Sequence record: MT446411.1
From: Escherichia virus TH40
Strand: one strand, 5' to 3'
DNA: 64,000 nucleotides
Shown here: piece by piece, positions 9,851-16,275 of the stretch
Layout: every line of letters starts with the position of its first letter
Position numbering within the stretch: position 1 is the first letter of the stretch
Position numbers and translations under genes: made by a program
Notes under the pieces: model-generated
What the model was told of the DNA's origin: nothing
What the model saw: the letters and a program-made list of their open reading frames with translations, nothing else
Database searches by the model: none

Positions 9851-10312
9851 TTATCCGAAAATTTGAGTCAAAACCTTATACATCGATTTACCCATTACGT
9901 ATTGCCATTGACTTGGTTTAATCAGAGCAAATGCATCAAACTCTGGGACCGAACTACCATCCGGGAAGGTATGATATGCGGAGCATTTACTATGTCTGAA
10001 TTGCTCATGCTCGACCGGAACCGTGTACAAAAACAGGTGAAGGTTTTTATTATCTGAATAACGAAACTCGCCTAGGTCTTTTAAGAATGCCGGGTCATAC
10101 TTGGTAAAACCTGTTTCTTCTTCACATTCACGCATAGCTGCTTCAATCAGGGATTCACCGGCTTCAACATGACCCTTAGGGATATCCCATTTATGCGCAG
10201 GCATACCCGGTTTGCGAGAACCAGTCACGCGCCCCATGAATAACTCTTTATCTTCAGTCATGAAAATAATACCAGCAGATAATTCTTTCGCCGCGTTTTT
10301 CTTACTCATCAT
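9851..10312 (-). CDS. nudE: Nudix hydrolase
   Basis: ATG at 10312; Nudix box GHVEAGESLIEAAMRECEEETG; position after e as in T4. Confidence 0.8.
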   Translation of the reverse strand: MMSKKNAAKELSAGIIFMTEDKELFMGRVTGSRKPGMPAHKWDIPKGHVEAGESLIEAAMRECEEETGFTKYDPAFLKDLGEFRYSDNKNLHLFLYTVPVEHEQFRHSKCSAYHTFPDGSSVPEFDAFALIKPSQWQYVMGKSMYKVLTQIFG

Positions 10313-10538
10313 CACGTTCCCAAGATTTTTTAAAGATTTCAGCCATAATAATTTCAATGCGTGTTTCTGTTGAAGGAGATTCACTACTAGAAGTTTGAAC
10401 TCTGTATTCAGAAATCGGGCGGAACAAGTCCAGGTCAATTTCTAAATCATCTTTGATTTCAACTTCGGGTGTACCTTTATCATAGGAATACAGGTAAGAA
10501 TCACATGACTCTGATTTAATATAAATTGCAATACTCAT
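10302..10538 (-). CDS. hypothetical acidic protein
   Basis: 78-aa ORF overlapping nudE start. Confidence 0.4.
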   Translation of the reverse strand: MSIAIYIKSESCDSYLYSYDKGTPEVEIKDDLEIDLDLFRPISEYRVQTSSSESPSTETRIEIIMAEIFKKSWERDDE

Positions 10539-11116
10539 TTACGACATTCCTCAATAAAAGAGTTCAATGTATTTTTCTTTGTGATATTGTCATATACCTT
10601 TTTAACTTTAGAAATACGAAAAGGTACTTCAATAATCGCAGTCCATAAAAATGAGGCGATAATACCTGCAATGGCCGCAGTCACTGCTGCCCCGAATATG
10701 CAAATTGGCAAGTCATTTTTCGTTGTCAGGAAAAACCACAGGATTGGAAAAAATAGTATTCCCATCCAGGCATAGAACCTGGAGCACACTAACTTGTCAT
10801 ATTCATCGCTCCATGTACGAAAACCATATTTTTCACTATAACAAATCAATGGGTCAGGTGTTTGTTCTTTATGTGGTTCTGGTTGCCAACCTTTAACGAT
10901 GTGCTTCATTTTATATTCCTCAATTAAAAGCTCTTTCATATGGCGATTGCATCGCGACCAATCAACGTTTTCCACCTTGATTCCTTCATCGCCATCATCA
11001 AGGTCAGCCCAATATCTTTTGGTAATCATAAATTCATCCCTTGGAACTGGAATACCTGCACATCCTTGTGGACCTTTCATATCACCCATGCAACCGGGTT
11101 CATACATCATTACCAT
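10535..11116 (-). CDS. hypothetical membrane protein, C-terminal F-I-E-E-C motif family
   Basis: 193 aa; two hydrophobic helices; ends NSFIEECRK. Confidence 0.5.
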   Translation of the reverse strand: MVMMYEPGCMGDMKGPQGCAGIPVPRDEFMITKRYWADLDDGDEGIKVENVDWSRCNRHMKELLIEEYKMKHIVKGWQPEPHKEQTPDPLICYSEKYGFRTWSDEYDKLVCSRFYAWMGILFFPILWFFLTTKNDLPICIFGAAVTAAIAGIIASFLWTAIIEVPFRISKVKKVYDNITKKNTLNSFIEECRK

Positions 11117-11796
11117 CCCTCCATAGGGAATTCCAGATATACTTGAGCATTAACGCGGATTTCATTGGTAATATTTTTAACACGGTCAGTGTTACGAGAT
11201 ACACGACCAAACCAGCGCCAACCGTTACTTACTGCACGAGAACCTGTATGCCATGTCTGCCAATCAAACTGGAGCAACGTGCGGTCAGGAGCATCCCACT
11301 TGGTTAATTCATTGGACTCAATTTTTTCCAGAACTTCTTTATGCCACTGGCGATAGATAAGTTCGCCTTCAGGAATCTGACTAAATTGTGCAGTTCCGGT
11401 TGCAAAATAAGTAGGGCACACATCAGCGTTAACAAGACCAAGAATATGTTCAGAATGGTAACGAGGATTATCATAATCAGGTTGCCCTGCAGTAATAAAG
11501 TGTTGACCAACCGGAATATCCGGGCGTGGTACATCGTCATGATGATAGCCAGGGATAGCTGGATACCAACCAGGCATCAACATATGAACCCGAGAATCAA
11601 ACACAACATGTTGATTAGTCCAATCAATTGGGAGATTGGCAATAAAGCTACGAGTGATTGGCCCGCCATTATCCCAAGCAAAACTCAAATCACAGTTAAA
11701 GAACATTGGTTCATTTTTGATTTGGTCATTTTGTACGTTATGTGCAAAACCACCTACTGCACGAGCTTGACTATTAAAAGTTTTAGGACCGTTCAT
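11110..11796 (-). CDS. hypothetical protein
   Basis: 228 aa; GAGGA SD before ATG 11796; no confident family assignment. Confidence 0.5.
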   Translation of the reverse strand: MNGPKTFNSQARAVGGFAHNVQNDQIKNEPMFFNCDLSFAWDNGGPITRSFIANLPIDWTNQHVVFDSRVHMLMPGWYPAIPGYHHDDVPRPDIPVGQHFITAGQPDYDNPRYHSEHILGLVNADVCPTYFATGTAQFSQIPEGELIYRQWHKEVLEKIESNELTKWDAPDRTLLQFDWQTWHTGSRAVSNGWRWFGRVSRNTDRVKNITNEIRVNAQVYLEFPMEGW

Positions 11797-11855
11797 AATA
11801 TTTTCCTCATTGATTGTGGGACCATTATGTCATAGCCCCATTTGGTTGTACACAC

Positions 11856-12815
11856 TTATTTTGAAAAAGGACGAATTAAATGTTGGTTAGCCTTGAAACG
11901 TTTAACATAGTCTTCGCGACCCAGGGTGTTGTACATATTCACTACTTCCTGGTAATGTTCCCAGGCATACTCACGAAACCATCCAGAAGTAATGGAGGTG
12001 CAGACTTTTTCCAGAGCAATATGGAAGCTCACGGATGGAGAGATACTAAACTCGTTAGGAACCTGCGAACGCTCCAGAGCGAGCACACATGCTTCTTCAT
12101 AAACCCCTGCCAGTTTAATAACATCAGGGAGTGCTTCAAATTTTTCACGCGAGGTCATGACTTCCGAATCATCCTTCATATAGAACTTATATGCAGGCTT
12201 ATCAGCAAGCGCCACGGCCTCGTGGATGGAGTCATGGTCAAGGGTATAGATTGTATCATTAAAGAAAGTTTTCTTGCCCACGTCTAGTTTAGGGTGGCTA
12301 TATGACAGTGTTTCTGCCTGACGTTGTAACATAATTTTCTGCAGTTCATCATTAAGAACAACACCCTTATTACGAAGGTAATTAATATGGCTCATGGTCT
12401 TCAGGAAGAATGGATTGTTCTTCAGGTAACGATGAGACAATTTAATTGCCAGACAAATATCAGGGGTCGCCCAATAGAAACCTGTAAGACGGTCTTTCTT
12501 AATATGATTTTCAGCGTATTTCAAGAGACGATAACTTGAGGTGAAATCTTCATCTTGAAGCTCACCAGTAATTTCTCGTACGTTGGTCAGGGCACGGACA
12601 ATATAAGCTTCAAAATAGGTTTCTTTGCCATTGTACATACATTTAAAAGCTTGGACATCAGGGTTATCCACAGGAACATGAGCACCGAACATACGTGCTT
12701 TAAAGTGGTTCCATGAGCCCTGGTCAGCGATGAAGTCCCAATCAGAGTTTTCAATTTTCTGACTTTCAATCAGACCAGCGTTATGTAATGCACGAGAACC
12801 AATAACTAACATCAT
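11856..12815 (-). CDS. hypothetical protein, possible nucleotidyltransferase-fold
   Basis: ATG pair at 12815/12812 with GAGGA SD; VIGSRALHNAG...SDWDFIA weakly resembles NTase h-G-S / D-x-D motifs. Confidence 0.45.
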   Translation of the reverse strand: MMLVIGSRALHNAGLIESQKIENSDWDFIADQGSWNHFKARMFGAHVPVDNPDVQAFKCMYNGKETYFEAYIVRALTNVREITGELQDEDFTSSYRLLKYAENHIKKDRLTGFYWATPDICLAIKLSHRYLKNNPFFLKTMSHINYLRNKGVVLNDELQKIMLQRQAETLSYSHPKLDVGKKTFFNDTIYTLDHDSIHEAVALADKPAYKFYMKDDSEVMTSREKFEALPDVIKLAGVYEEACVLALERSQVPNEFSISPSVSFHIALEKVCTSITSGWFREYAWEHYQEVVNMYNTLGREDYVKRFKANQHLIRPFSK

Positions 12816-12834
12816 AATATTTTCCTCAGATAAC

Positions 12835-13065
12835 TTAAATTTCAGCAGCAGAGATATTAGATTCATCTATCATCTCGGAGGCGGACCCCTTAACGATAGG
12901 AACCAATTTGCCATAGAGGTCTTCATTATAAGGGTCGTTGATACAGTGCGCATCTTCAAAACGAACACCGTAATCAGACTTCTTATAAACGAGACCGTAA
13001 ATCTTTGTAAACTTAGCGCGACTAATTTTTACGGGCTCATCAGCCATTGGAGCATAATACCACAT
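12835..13065 (-). CDS. hypothetical small protein
   Basis: 76-aa ORF. Confidence 0.4.
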   Translation of the reverse strand: MWYYAPMADEPVKISRAKFTKIYGLVYKKSDYGVRFEDAHCINDPYNEDLYGKLVPIVKGSASEMIDESNISAAEI

Positions 13066-13168
13066 AATATTTTCCTCATTAGTTGACGAGATAATGATAC
13101 TACGTTTCTTTAGGCTTGTACACTAAATTTCTGCGCATAAGTCCTCCTATCACATCCTTGTGATTAAA

Positions 13169-13396
13169 TTATTTTCCTAACGAAATACGAGTAGGTTTTT
13201 TACCGAAATATTCTTCATAGGAACCATCTAAACGGCCCGCTTTAGACCGACAGTACGAATCATACTTTTTGTAATAAGTCAACTCTGTATTGTAACGTGG
13301 ATGTCTATCAGCCATAATAATACTTAACGGCCAACCTTTGGCGTAATCACGAAGACCATTTATTTTACGAATATATCTTTTCTTTAATTTTAACAT
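13169..13396 (-). CDS. hypothetical small basic protein
   Basis: 75-aa ORF; ATG overlaps upstream stop. Confidence 0.4.
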   Translation of the reverse strand: MLKLKKRYIRKINGLRDYAKGWPLSIIMADRHPRYNTELTYYKKYDSYCRSKAGRLDGSYEEYFGKKPTRISLGK

Positions 13397-13614
13397 GAGC
13401 TCGGATACCAGATTTTACCATCCGGGTGAGCAACAAAGGTGCGTCCAGCTTCTTCACCATAACAAGAGCTATTCAACCAGTCTTCAAGACGAACTTCACC
13501 ATCATAATCGTCGAGCTCAATACCGAAATCTTGGGCAGAAGCCATATCTTTAACTTTCTTATACAGCGCAGCCAGTTCAAGAGCTGCTTTTTCTAATTCA
13601 TTAATATCAGACAT
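13390..13614 (-). CDS. small protein, C-terminal SS-C tail family
   Basis: 74 aa ending ...WYPSSC; SD overlapping upstream stop. Confidence 0.45.
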   Translation of the reverse strand: MSDINELEKAALELAALYKKVKDMASAQDFGIELDDYDGEVRLEDWLNSSCYGEEAGRTFVAHPDGKIWYPSSC

Positions 13615-13623
13615 TTTTATTCC

Positions 13624-13821
13624 TTAGCATTCGTAAGAGGAGGACACCCAAGAGGTACCACTAATAGTAATACAACCGTTATAAAGCGTGATATGTCGTT
13701 CTAGGTCACGAACACCGTCGATATAGATATCAGCTTCTTCTCGTTCTTCTTTACAAATCTGGATAACGTTTTCAATAGCTGCGGCTGCAGTACGGATTGC
13801 ACAATCTAATTCACGAGACAT
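13624..13821 (-). CDS. small protein, C-terminal W-V-S-S-S-x-E-C tail family
   Basis: 65 aa ending SWVSSSYEC. Confidence 0.45.
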   Translation of the reverse strand: MSRELDCAIRTAAAAIENVIQICKEEREEADIYIDGVRDLERHITLYNGCITISGTSWVSSSYEC

Positions 13822-13830
13822 AATAATTCC

Positions 13831-14112
13831 TTAACATTCAGAAGAGGAGGACACCCAACCACCTTTTTCCAGGTCAGTTGTATAGTCATGTTGGTTAACG
13901 ATAGCGTATTGGGCTTCACCGTAGTTTTCCCAATGAGCAAGGTCAGCTTTCAGGGCGCCAGGAGAATAATAGTCACCGCCCATACCGCGAGCAGGGTATA
14001 TATTAAAATGAGTCTCATATTTGTTTGCAATTTCCTCGGCACGACGAATAGCTTTATGGATATCATTTACTGCGTTGGCCAGTTCTTTATTTTTACTGTA
14101 ATCGTTCATCAT
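13831..14112 (-). CDS. small protein, C-terminal W-V-S-S-S-x-E-C tail family
   Basis: 93 aa ending GWVSSSSEC. Confidence 0.45.
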   Translation of the reverse strand: MMNDYSKNKELANAVNDIHKAIRRAEEIANKYETHFNIYPARGMGGDYYSPGALKADLAHWENYGEAQYAIVNQHDYTTDLEKGGWVSSSSEC

Positions 14113-14121
14113 ACCATTTCC

Positions 14122-14412
14122 TTAACACATCTCAGAAGAGGAGACCCAAGCACCAACGGTAACAACACCATTTTCAACCCGACCGCCATTGGCTTCAATA
14201 TGATGGGTAAACCATTCAGAGCATTCATAACCAACTGGATGATATGTACGGCCGGTGCCGTAATCACCAGTGCTGAATTCGATACCATATTCATCTGCGA
14301 TTTCTTCACAGTGTTTTTCAATTTCAGAGGTCTTATTTAGAAGAGAATAGATAGCTTTTTCTGCAGATTTCTCATCATAATACTTGGGGATAGCAATTTC
14401 AATTTTATTCAT
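14122..14412 (-). CDS. small protein, C-terminal W-V-S-S-S-x-x-C tail family
   Basis: 96 aa ending AWVSSSEMC. Confidence 0.45.
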   Translation of the reverse strand: MNKIEIAIPKYYDEKSAEKAIYSLLNKTSEIEKHCEEIADEYGIEFSTGDYGTGRTYHPVGYECSEWFTHHIEANGGRVENGVVTVGAWVSSSEMC

Positions 14413-14762
14413 GATTTACATTCCTTAATAAAGGTTTCAAGGTCATTACGTTTTGTTTTGTCTAGGAACTTATTATACTCAGCCATTGCTGAAGCATATC
14501 TCTTATATATGGGAGCATTCAAGGCGTTTGTATAACAGATATCATACACAACCGGGATAAAATAGGCCACAACAGCCGGAGCAATTATCATAAAGAAGCC
14601 CATCTCAATAGGCATGACTCCCTCGATTGCAGCCATAACCGTGGTCATTACCAGACCAACCAGACCACCGAGCATGGCAGTGACAATCCCTAATAATAAA
14701 TTGGCACCAATATCATATTCAGCCAATTGATAAACATGTGATGCAAGACTAGGCCGTTCCAT
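14409..14762 (-). CDS. hypothetical membrane protein, C-terminal F-I-K-E-C family
   Basis: ATG at 14762 with AAGGAGG SD; 2-3 TM helices; ends ETFIKECKS. Confidence 0.5.
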   Translation of the reverse strand: MERPSLASHVYQLAEYDIGANLLLGIVTAMLGGLVGLVMTTVMAAIEGVMPIEMGFFMIIAPAVVAYFIPVVYDICYTNALNAPIYKRYASAMAEYNKFLDKTKRNDLETFIKECKS

Positions 14763-15108
14763 TACGAACCTCCTTAATAAATTCTTCGGCACATTTAATT
14801 TTGTGCTCTTCTTGTAGGGAAACACATTTTTGTTCCCACTCTTTAACTCGTCCACGATATCCTTTATTCATATGATTTTGATGCCACACATTTATCAATA
14901 TCATACACAAGACCGTAATAAAAGGAGCGGCGATTATTAGTGCCCAGGCAACTCCAACACTAATGATATCCATATCCCCACAAAGCACCATCATTATAAC
15001 CCCAACAATGCATATAGACAGAGCCCCAAATGGAGGCATAAGGTCTTTATCAATTTTGTCTGCGTATACAAATTTTTCTGGTTTACTTGGTAGATATAGC
15101 GTTCGCAT
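14749..15108 (-). CDS. hypothetical membrane protein, C-terminal F-I-K-E-V family
   Basis: ATG at 15108; TM helices; ends EEFIKEVRNGTA, where the F-I-K-E codons carry the downstream SD. Confidence 0.45.
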   Translation of the reverse strand: MRTLYLPSKPEKFVYADKIDKDLMPPFGALSICIVGVIMMVLCGDMDIISVGVAWALIIAAPFITVLCMILINVWHQNHMNKGYRGRVKEWEQKCVSLQEEHKIKCAEEFIKEVRNGTA

Positions 15109-15637
15109 TTTGAGCCCCTTTAGCATATTCACGACATTCAGTAATAAAACGATTAAGCTTCCGTTGTTGTTTACGACTCTCTGATGTGTATTCAGCCGCC
15201 AAATCAAGAAGTTCAGCTTTATCATAATTTTTAATATCAGCATAAGCTGGACGACGGTCAACCATTCCAAAGTGGTCACCATTTTCTAACATCAAATAAC
15301 ATACCAAATGGTCATCATCATCCGCATCAATAAGTCGTTTATAATCGCTTGGGTCGTTTAATGCATACACTGAATAACGTAGTCCAGCGAATTCCACTCG
15401 TTGGATACCCAGATTTACGTCAATAATTTCCAAGGCATCTGCAAAAGAAAGGTCTTCAGCTAAAGCAAAAATAAAAGGCAATTTTGTAGTATCACCACGG
15501 CTAGTTGTTCTTCTTAAGAAATCATTGGAATAACCTAGGTCACCACGGATTCTATAAAGAACTGTATTAGTTTCAGTGGCAAGACCACTACCGCCAAACC
15601 ATTCTACATTTGATATAAGATTATCGTATGAAGTCAT
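15083..15637 (-). CDS. hypothetical protein, C-terminal F-I-T-E-C family
   Basis: ATG at 15637 with GAGGAG SD; ...LNRFITECREYAKG. Confidence 0.5.
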   Translation of the reverse strand: MTSYDNLISNVEWFGGSGLATETNTVLYRIRGDLGYSNDFLRRTTSRGDTTKLPFIFALAEDLSFADALEIIDVNLGIQRVEFAGLRYSVYALNDPSDYKRLIDADDDDHLVCYLMLENGDHFGMVDRRPAYADIKNYDKAELLDLAAEYTSESRKQQRKLNRFITECREYAKGAQNANAISTK

Positions 15638-15655: not shown

Positions 15656-15680
15656 TTAAGGGGGCAAAGCCCCCTTTTAT
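15656..15680. terminator. GC hairpin with flanking A/T runs
   Basis: gggggc-aaa-gccccc then tttt on plus strand, between two minus-strand genes; orientation ambiguous. Confidence 0.35.
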
Positions 15681-15681
15681 C

Positions 15682-16275
15682 TTACTTAAGTGAATTGATG
15701 TATTCTTCAATGTCAGCGGATGTGGTATCCACACCGACCTGCGGGCCTTTGAAGGTTTCAACACGCATCAGAGTGTCTTCAATATCAATCTTAGTCAATG
15801 CAGCGATTTCAACAACATCATCTGCAGTCGCAATACCCAGGGCAGATACCTTACGAGTTTCGCGGATGTATTCCAGTTTAACAGCTAGTTCCTGACGAGA
15901 ATCATCCAGCTCTTTAACTTTCAATTTAATTTCATTACGCATTTCAACATAATCATCTGCCTTCTTACGAAGTTGTTTAGCAGTGCGACGATACAGAAGA
16001 CCCAGTTTAGCATGGACTTGCACATCTGCTCCATCAGCAATCAGTTTACGGATTTCACGCTCTTTTGAAGCAGCGAGCTGGTCTTTTTCATTCGCTAACT
16101 CGCGGATGCGTTTTTCTTCATTAACAGACTTAACGTGGGCAGTCTGGAGCTCAGTAATCTTGTCAATCAGGGTAGAAGCCGCTTTGGTATACTGGTCTTC
16201 AATAGACAGGTTTTGTGCCATTGCAGTACCCAGTTTGGAGCGGATGAATTCAACAAGTTTCTTTAAAGTATTCAT
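15682..16275 (-). CDS. hypothetical coiled-coil protein
   Basis: 197 aa rich in heptad-like charged repeats. Confidence 0.5.

Follow-up and report, generated by a model that had tools for sequence, protein, structure and literature searches.

A conserved C-terminal motif on e.2, e.3, e.4, e.5 and other small proteins encoded downstream of e.6 in T4-like phages

The 64,000-nucleotide stretch of Escherichia virus TH40 analysed here (sequence record MT446411.1; below, the window) encodes homologues of the T4 proteins e.2, e.3, e.4 and e.5, all of which end in a common short motif with the core [F/W]-[I/V]-K-x-C-R-[K/R], referred to as the tail. In T4-like phages the tail is conserved at the level of the protein, is restricted to a gene array linked to e.6 and shares its codons, at sliding positions, with the Shine-Dalgarno (SD) sequence of the following gene. 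We hypothesize that it is a cytoplasmic docking peptide recognised by one common partner, the SD overlap being secondary and the gene junctions acting as occasional crossover sites, a reading to which we give an even chance of being right. T4 is the best-studied lytic phage, yet e.2–e.6 are still without a known function, and the tail offers a handle on e.2–e.5 and on dozens of lineage-specific ORFans, in that its binder can be sought.

The tail in the window

The region is about 90% identical to Escherichia phage MN01 and to Gaprivervirus phages such as SP18; the window comes, by sequence, from a T4-like (Gaprivervirus-type) phage, and the four open reading frames (ORFs) are homologues of e.2, e.3, e.4 and e.5. 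Every gene of the region is carried by the minus strand, and the order obtained by annotation transfer and comparison with T4 is e.6, e.5, e.4, e.3, an insert, e.2, a 78-aa ORF, nudE and e in the window and in T4. The four genes are thus found on the same strand and between e.6 and nudE/e, as expected of orthologues of T4 e.2–e.5, and they match four separate PHROG families. Their T4 counterparts, uncharacterised genes of the e–segB intergenic region (PHROGs 2203, 2330, 2604 and 8788/2607; Pfam PF26873 for e.4), are the same genes by sequence and synteny, and the GenBank notes of SP18 name e.2 and e.4. Unlike in T4, about 3.3 kb of other small genes separates e.3 from e.2 in this phage. No description of a function or of a shared motif for T4 e.2–e.5, nor of the tail itself, was found in the literature searched, and the four proteins gave no usable match to Pfam, NCBIfam or PDB sequences. 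PF26873.1 is listed for e.4 homologues in the precomputed Pfam annotation, so that Pfam already holds an e.4 family; a local Pfam scan of the e.4-like protein of the window did not return this family.

The e.5-like gene (15083..15637, minus strand; 184 aa, JS98 gp131-like; phrog_8788, 1.8e-110) is always the first after e.6 and encodes a soluble protein ending in LNRFITECREYAKGAQNANAISTK. Next come the e.4-like gene (14749..15108, minus; 119 aa; SP18 e.4, phrog_2604, 8.1e-45, PF26873), with two predicted transmembrane (TM) helices and a 42-aa C-terminal segment ending in AEEFIKEVRNGTA, where Val replaces Cys, and the e.3-like gene (14409..14762, minus; 117 aa, JS98 gp130-like; phrog_2330, 4.6e-44), in which a 62-residue hydrophobic block precedes a 39-aa basic C-terminal segment ending in LETFIKECKS. 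The e.2-like gene (10535..11116, minus; 193 aa; SP18 e.2, phrog_2203, 3.6e-68) encodes a soluble domain with homology to T4 e.2 at its N-terminus, followed by two hydrophobic helices and a basic segment that closes the protein with LNSFIEECRK. The ORFs, their coordinates and their endings (FIEECRK, FIKECKS, FIKEVRNGTA and FITECREYAKG...) agree with what a first-pass annotation of the window had described. Across all six frames of the window the pattern FI.E[CV] occurs five times, and four of these are the C-termini of the array proteins, compared with about 0.18 predicted from the internal rate. The motif that these ends have in common is non-random, and within the window the tail is present on the four genes only. 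Beyond the e.5-like tail lies a second, degenerate copy, Y-A-K-G-A-Q-N (15107..15127), resembling F-I-K-E-V-R-N.

In Kyte-Doolittle profiles the e.2-like protein has two hydrophobic helices (residues ~112–132 and 145–167), the hydrophobic block of the e.3-like protein corresponds to two to three, the e.4-like protein has two and the e.5-like protein none. Three of the four are accordingly predicted membrane proteins with two to three hydrophobic helices, as had been proposed, and the e.5-like protein is predicted to be soluble. The C-terminal soluble segments are 25–42 residues long and basic, with 7–9 Lys and Arg residues each.

Conservation of the motif in T4-like phages

The comparison covered about 28 loci, namely 21 IMG/VR loci fetched via e.6, six more distant loci and Yersinia phage phiR1-RT. 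In all of them (e.6 identity down to 48%, Aeromonas phages and phiR1-RT included) the gene right after e.6 has a tail, and usually 3–7 genes of the array do so. More than 20 sequence clusters of small ORFs bear it, always in the array just downstream of e.6. In Aeromonas phage 31 the sole tail-bearing gene is the one adjoining e.6, and in the complete T4 genome (566 ORFs of at least 40 aa) the tail occurs only on e.3 (EFVIDCRKIK), e.4 (KFVKESRCKSQS) and e.5 (KFVKECREYVKAITIPSK) and on a frameshifted remnant of e.2.

With each sequence cluster counted once, the full motif spans 11 residues, hydrophobic-[E/D/N]-x-[F/W]-[I/V]-K-x-C-R-[K/R]. Over 22 sequence clusters, position 0 is F or W (TTT, TTC or TGG) and position 1 is I, V or L (nine codons). 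K predominates at position 2, and position 3 varies freely. C occupies position 4 in 23 of 32 clusters (TGT or TGC) and R occupies position 5 in 29 of 31, each of the six Arg codons being used; position 6 is K or R. Upstream, most residues at position −3 are hydrophobic (28/38, with six Thr), and those at position −2 are E, N or D. The F-I-x-E-C motif of the first-pass annotation therefore stands as a shared tail, whereas its definition by the Glu residue or by a ribosome-binding site does not, the invariant residues being F/W, I/V, C and R and the core being kept also when the SD lies downstream or in the intergenic spacer. Since third codon positions are free and the amino acids fixed, a purely RNA- or DNA-level constraint is excluded, and sequence comparison indicates that selection keeps the motif at the protein level. 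The hydrophobic positions follow an i, i+3, i+4, i+7 spacing, which places them on one helix face and suggests an amphipathic helix motif.

Outside the tail the proteins change rapidly. In an alignment of e.5 from 12 lineages, columns have an average identity of 0.23, and among 8-column windows the tail scores highest, at 0.64; a hidden Markov model (HMM) search of 1.84 billion representatives with e.5 returned two matches only, as a consequence of the fast evolution of its body. Deep searches with the e.5-like and e.4-like proteins likewise retrieved close relatives only (27 and 7 clusters, respectively). Soluble carriers of the tail comprise e.5 and three proteins of Aeromonas phage ZPAH1, and the tail is therefore not a membrane-insertion feature.

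The e.2 gene is intact in the window, whereas T4 reference e.2 (102 aa; NC_000866, 67491..67960) carries a frameshift; in close relatives e.2 has 162 aa and ends in FITECRKLK. The T4 gene is annotated without the TM helices and the tail; the second TM helix and the tail (...NLNNFITEC...) can be read in other frames past the annotated stop, in the 'intergenic' DNA before nudE. In phiR1-RT (HE956709, ~69900..70550) g129 is annotated with 49 aa, and its ORF extends upstream to give a two-TM protein ending in FITYCRGNK; an unannotated two-TM ORF ending in FISECRGR occupies the 490-nt gap between g129 and g130.

Overlap with Shine-Dalgarno sequences

It had also been proposed that the tail codons carry the ribosome-binding site of the next gene, and this holds at three of the four junctions in the window. 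In the e.4-like gene the codons for F-I-K-E-V-R (14764..14781, minus; TTTATTAAGGAGGTTCGTAATG) contain the SD TAAGGAGG (14769..14776), which, with a 6-nt spacer, serves the e.3-like ATG (14762..14760), so that the AAGGAGG assigned to the ATG at 14762 is borne out. We take the GGAG within this AAGGAGG (14769..14776, minus) to be of the SD kind that is cleaved in early mRNAs by the T4 endoribonuclease RegB. The F-I-K-E-C-K-S codons of the e.3-like gene (14412..14432, minus; TTTATTAAGGAATGTAAATCATG) hold the SD TAAGGA (14422..14427) 9 nt from the ATG (14412..14410) of the next gene (14122..14412), and the F-I-E-E-C-R-K codons of the e.2-like gene (10538..10558, minus; TTTATTGAGGAATGTCGTAAATG) hold GAGGA (10548..10552), 9 nt from the overlapping ATG (10538..10536) of the gene at 10302..10538. 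The proposal fails at the e.5-like to e.4-like junction: the F-I-T-E-C-R-E codons (15128..15148, minus) have no SD within, and the e.4-like ATG at 15108 is preceded by AAAGGGG (15115..15121) in the Y-A-K-G-A codons, 7–9 codons past the e.5-like motif.

The same variability is seen across 83 distinct junctions, at which the SD lies in motif codons 1–4 (36 junctions), in codons 5–7 (20), downstream of the motif (13) or in the intergenic spacer (6), six junctions having no SD of at least 4 nt and two no ORF within 45 nt downstream. In codons 1–4 it is K-E, K-G or E-E that spell AAGGA or GAGGA, and in codons 5–7 it is R-K, R-G or R-R that spell AGGAA, AGAGG or AGGAG, with Arg then encoded by AGR. 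The motif is intact at all 83 junctions, for example in FLEYCRSDVQL with its 46-nt spacer. Dual coding is, on this codon evidence, real but secondary: free motif positions appear adapted to the SD, which is not the cause of the motif. Tight packing and translational coupling require the downstream SD to sit in the last codons of a gene, and the variable motif positions have been recruited for it. The array thereby provides a natural example of dual coding, with a fixed peptide and a sliding SD in the same codons and with the choice of Arg and Lys/Glu codons bent toward the SD.

Relationship of the four protein families

The first-pass annotation regarded the four proteins as a paralog expansion, for which the comparisons give no support. 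Once the tails are removed, no significant BLAST or profile-profile link remains among the e.2, e.3, e.4 and e.5 families; the BLAST clusters stay separate, and hhalign probabilities obtained with the tail-less profiles, which are shallow, are 24% for e.3–e.4 (18 columns adjoining the tail), 1.6% for e.2–e.3, 0.3% for e.2–e.4 and below 1% for every pair with e.5. Reversed-sequence controls also reach 24%. The e.5 lineages, by contrast, are linked to one another at probabilities of 53% and 83% when their tails are removed. Nor do the four proteins have a common architecture of a TM hairpin with a cytoplasmic tail, e.5 being without hydrophobic helices and e.2 having an extra 108-aa soluble domain. 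Of the two features on which the proposal had been staked, homology outside the tail is thus not detected and membrane prediction holds for three of the four. With full-length proteins, PHROG cross-hits occur from e.3 to e.2 and from e.4 to e.3, only at E = 0.002–0.007, and a distant paralogy or common descent of the TM proteins is possible on sequence grounds.

Possible function of the tail

Two-TM proteins carry the tail as the last part of a Lys/Arg-rich C-terminal segment, and in e.5 it terminates a soluble protein, from which we infer that it is cytoplasmic. There, it would plug unrelated bodies, membrane hairpins as well as soluble domains, into one machinery, which may be encoded or headed by the neighbouring e.6 or may be a host factor. 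Recognition by a common partner is suggested in particular by one locus, L033, in which all five tails (FIDMCKK, FISQCKGK, FIKRCKNV, FVKLCKGQK and FIKQMKSN) have Lys in place of Arg at position 5, compared with about 3 of 50 tails in a hand tally of the other loci (Fisher p = 1.6e-5). The codon contexts of these tails differ, and recent gene conversion is therefore not the cause; homogenisation of tails by gene conversion within a genome is on this ground not supported, and in the window the codons merely follow codon bias. A concerted Arg-to-Lys change in unrelated proteins fits co-evolution with a single recognition surface, be it that of a third protein or of the tails themselves.

Several points weigh against a docking function. 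Only one lineage has Lys in all its tails, these tails are partly dependent on one another, and the partner is putative. The tail may instead reflect plain common ancestry and have been retained for structural reasons. The helical state is predicted from the sequence pattern and a low-confidence model, and the AlphaFold model of the e.5-like protein, built from a shallow alignment, is too poor to use (pLDDT 41). In about one quarter of the clusters, that of the e.4-like protein of the window included, V, I, M, A or S takes the place of the Cys. The motif lies 1 to 16 residues from the C-terminus, and the tail is therefore not a classical C-terminal-carboxylate motif.

If the recognition surface is that of the tails themselves, the array proteins would form a hetero-oligomeric membrane complex through their C-terminal helices, the Cys residues possibly sharing a metal ion. 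The change in L033 fits such self-recognition equally well as a third-party partner, the hydrophobic face is typical of helix-helix packing, and several tail proteins always occur together in one translationally coupled array; the lone tail-bearing gene beside e.6 in Aeromonas phage 31, the shortness of 11 residues for a stable coiled coil and the fact that the Cys is not invariant nevertheless make this explanation fairly unlikely. The superinfection-exclusion or host-takeover role put forward in the first-pass annotation is conjecture, as no Pfam, PHROG or NCBIfam match links any of the four proteins to a characterised one. A set of such membrane factors, derived from paralog expansion, would agree with the presence of three small predicted inner-membrane proteins in an accessory-gene region, with the assignment of phrog_2203 (the e.2 family) to the PHROGs category 'moron, auxiliary metabolic gene and host takeover' and with the weak full-length cross-hits mentioned above. 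We consider it unlikely, given that similarity to Imm or Sp is absent in Pfam, PHROGs and NCBIfam, that homology is lost without the tail and that e.5 and several other tail proteins are soluble. Moreover, a toxicity screen of phiR1-RT confirmed four toxic proteins, of which none is encoded in this cluster (PMC6893735), the toxic genes g136 and g137 lying outside it in the tRNA region, and no toxicity screen on this cluster was found in the literature.

Two further readings place the constraint on nucleic acid instead of on the protein. The conserved gene ends could be mainly DNA-level recombination sites, comparable to the boundaries of promoter-early stem-loop (PeSL) cassettes, that allow in-frame gene shuffling. 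This would account for the wide differences in gene content between tails among phages and for the loss of e.4 in JS98-type phages, in which a chimeric e.5 tail is left at a shared junction, and T4-type phages are documented to undergo PeSL crossovers between SD and −10 boxes (PMC2839356). The tails have little DNA identity, whether compared between genomes or inside one, and their codons differ, only one clear event is seen and selection is visibly on the amino acids, all of which renders this reading very unlikely; recombination is better seen as a consequence of tail conservation than as its reason. The peptide could also be the translated shadow of an RNA element formed by an A/U-rich enhancer and the SD of the downstream gene, since the SD falls inside the motif codons at 56 of 83 junctions, the motif usually lies 17–28 nt before the next ATG and UUU-AUU-AAR is A/U-rich. 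A motif that uses six Arg codons and both Cys codons, alternates between F and W and between I, V and L, and is intact with an intergenic, downstream or missing SD is hardly explained in this way, and the e.5-like tail of the window has no SD within its codons; we rejected a ribosome-binding-site shadow on the codon evidence and regard it as extremely improbable.

A further comparison is with the capsid-targeting sequence of T4, MKTYQEFIAE, a portable N-terminal sequence found on otherwise unrelated small internal proteins, which it would address to one partner. It is a feature of late virion proteins and is cut by the gp21 protease after Glu. Three internal-protein-like ORFs in the window (~8487, 8815 and 20777, minus) begin with MKTYQEFITE or MKTYQEFINE, the capsid-targeting sequence of the T4 internal proteins, and these share F-I-T-E with the e.5-like tail. 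The tail differs in being C-terminal and in having Glu at position 3 in only about 9 of 32 clusters, with C and R as the invariant residues. A link to the capsid-targeting sequence or to the gp21 cleavage site (L/I-x-E) was rejected for its C-terminal place and the infrequent Glu, and the resemblance is probably coincidental.

Gene e.6 as a candidate partner

The conserved head gene of the array, e.6 (15682..16275, minus; 197 aa), is predicted to encode a long helical hairpin with short flanking helices and is, by inference only, a candidate partner of the tail. Its AlphaFold model has a pLDDT of 73.5, with more than 90 in the hairpin, and Foldseek ranks Vipp1 in each of the first nine places among PDB matches (E = 0.005–0.05, full length). 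A homologue of e.6 is annotated as 'shock protein A' in two GenBank records, and PspA was matched neither at E <= 1 in Pfam nor at E <= 10 in PDB profile searches. Fold-level support for e.6 as a PspA homologue is weak, and as partner of the tail it is a lead, not a finding. As an analogy, e.6 with its predicted helical hairpin may be compared with the membrane systems of the phage-shock PspA–PspB/PspC and Vipp1/ESCRT-III type. In the Psp system, PspA is bound by small inner-membrane proteins through their cytoplasmic segments. Literature searches for phage-encoded PspA gave nothing on this cluster. A compensatory change in e.6 of L033 was considered, where E53Q is unique in an otherwise invariant column, and rejected as not significant, such singletons being present in 12 of 38 sequences.

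On these models one may imagine the tail as an address label, with changeable small inner-membrane and soluble adaptors recruiting or regulating a PspA/Vipp1 (ESCRT-III)-like e.6 via the [F/W]-[I/V]-K-x-C-R-K helix. We consider this quite unlikely; if true, T4-like phages would possess a membrane-remodelling or membrane-protection system of their own, into which e.2–e.5 and their many lineage-specific replacements would plug as adaptors.

Recombination at the junctions

In JS98-like phages (L006–L011) e.4 is absent and e.5 ends in a chimeric tail, FIAECREYAKEVQNGTA, that joins parts of the e.5 and e.4 tails. A stretch of about 22 nt, TAARGRGGYTCRWAATG, that is common to the e.5-to-e.4 and e.4-to-e.3 junctions contains the crossover, and the JS98-type junction is, judged from these sequences, most likely the product of one recombination event. 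Similar junctions would also offer short stretches of homology through which array genes are lost.

PeSL cassettes drive modular shuffling in T4-type phages (PMC2839356, PMC4122927). The tail junctions resemble them as short conserved boundary sequences in hyperplastic regions that finish with the next gene's SD and start codon and at which crossovers delete or move ORFs, as the e.4 deletion illustrates with one event. In contrast, PeSLs are non-coding promoter/terminator elements conserved as DNA, whereas the tail is coding sequence within overlapping genes, conserved at the level of amino acids and not of nucleotides. The promoter and stem-loop of a PeSL are absent from the four junctions, which consist of overlapping coding sequence with no spacer, and the region shows no excess of promoter-like sites over shuffled sequence (26 compared with 22.8 expected). 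The sole strong stem-loop near the array is located between e.6 and the e.5-like gene, where a GC-rich palindrome, AAGGGGGCAAAGCCCCCTT (15658..15676), marks the start of the translationally coupled tail genes; T4 has an equivalent palindrome after e.6. Coding junctions, besides the non-coding PeSLs, therefore appear to serve as crossover points for gene loss in hyperplastic regions of T4-type phages.

Neighbouring genes

Two larger genes are inserted between e.3 and e.2, at 11856..12866 and 11110..11796 (both minus). One encodes a 336-aa DUF7277+DUF7275 protein, and the same Pfam families are present in two of the T4-like loci (L031 and L033). The other encodes a 228-aa protein that ends in ...VYLEFPMEGW, shows strong conservation among T4-like loci and in one record bears the annotation phytanoyl-CoA dioxygenase. 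A second tandem family, made up of small soluble ORFs (phrog_899 and phrog_4882), is located at 13390..14412 (minus), with members at 13390..13614, 13624..13821, 13831..14112 and 14122..14412. These have Cys as the last residue (...IWYPSSC, ...WVSSSYEC, ...WVSSSSEC and ...WVSSSEMC), and the stop codon TAA together with GGA forms the SD of the next gene. The same W-x-S-S-S-x-x-C end recurs in other T4-like loci (GVWISSSEMC and GWQSSSYQC).

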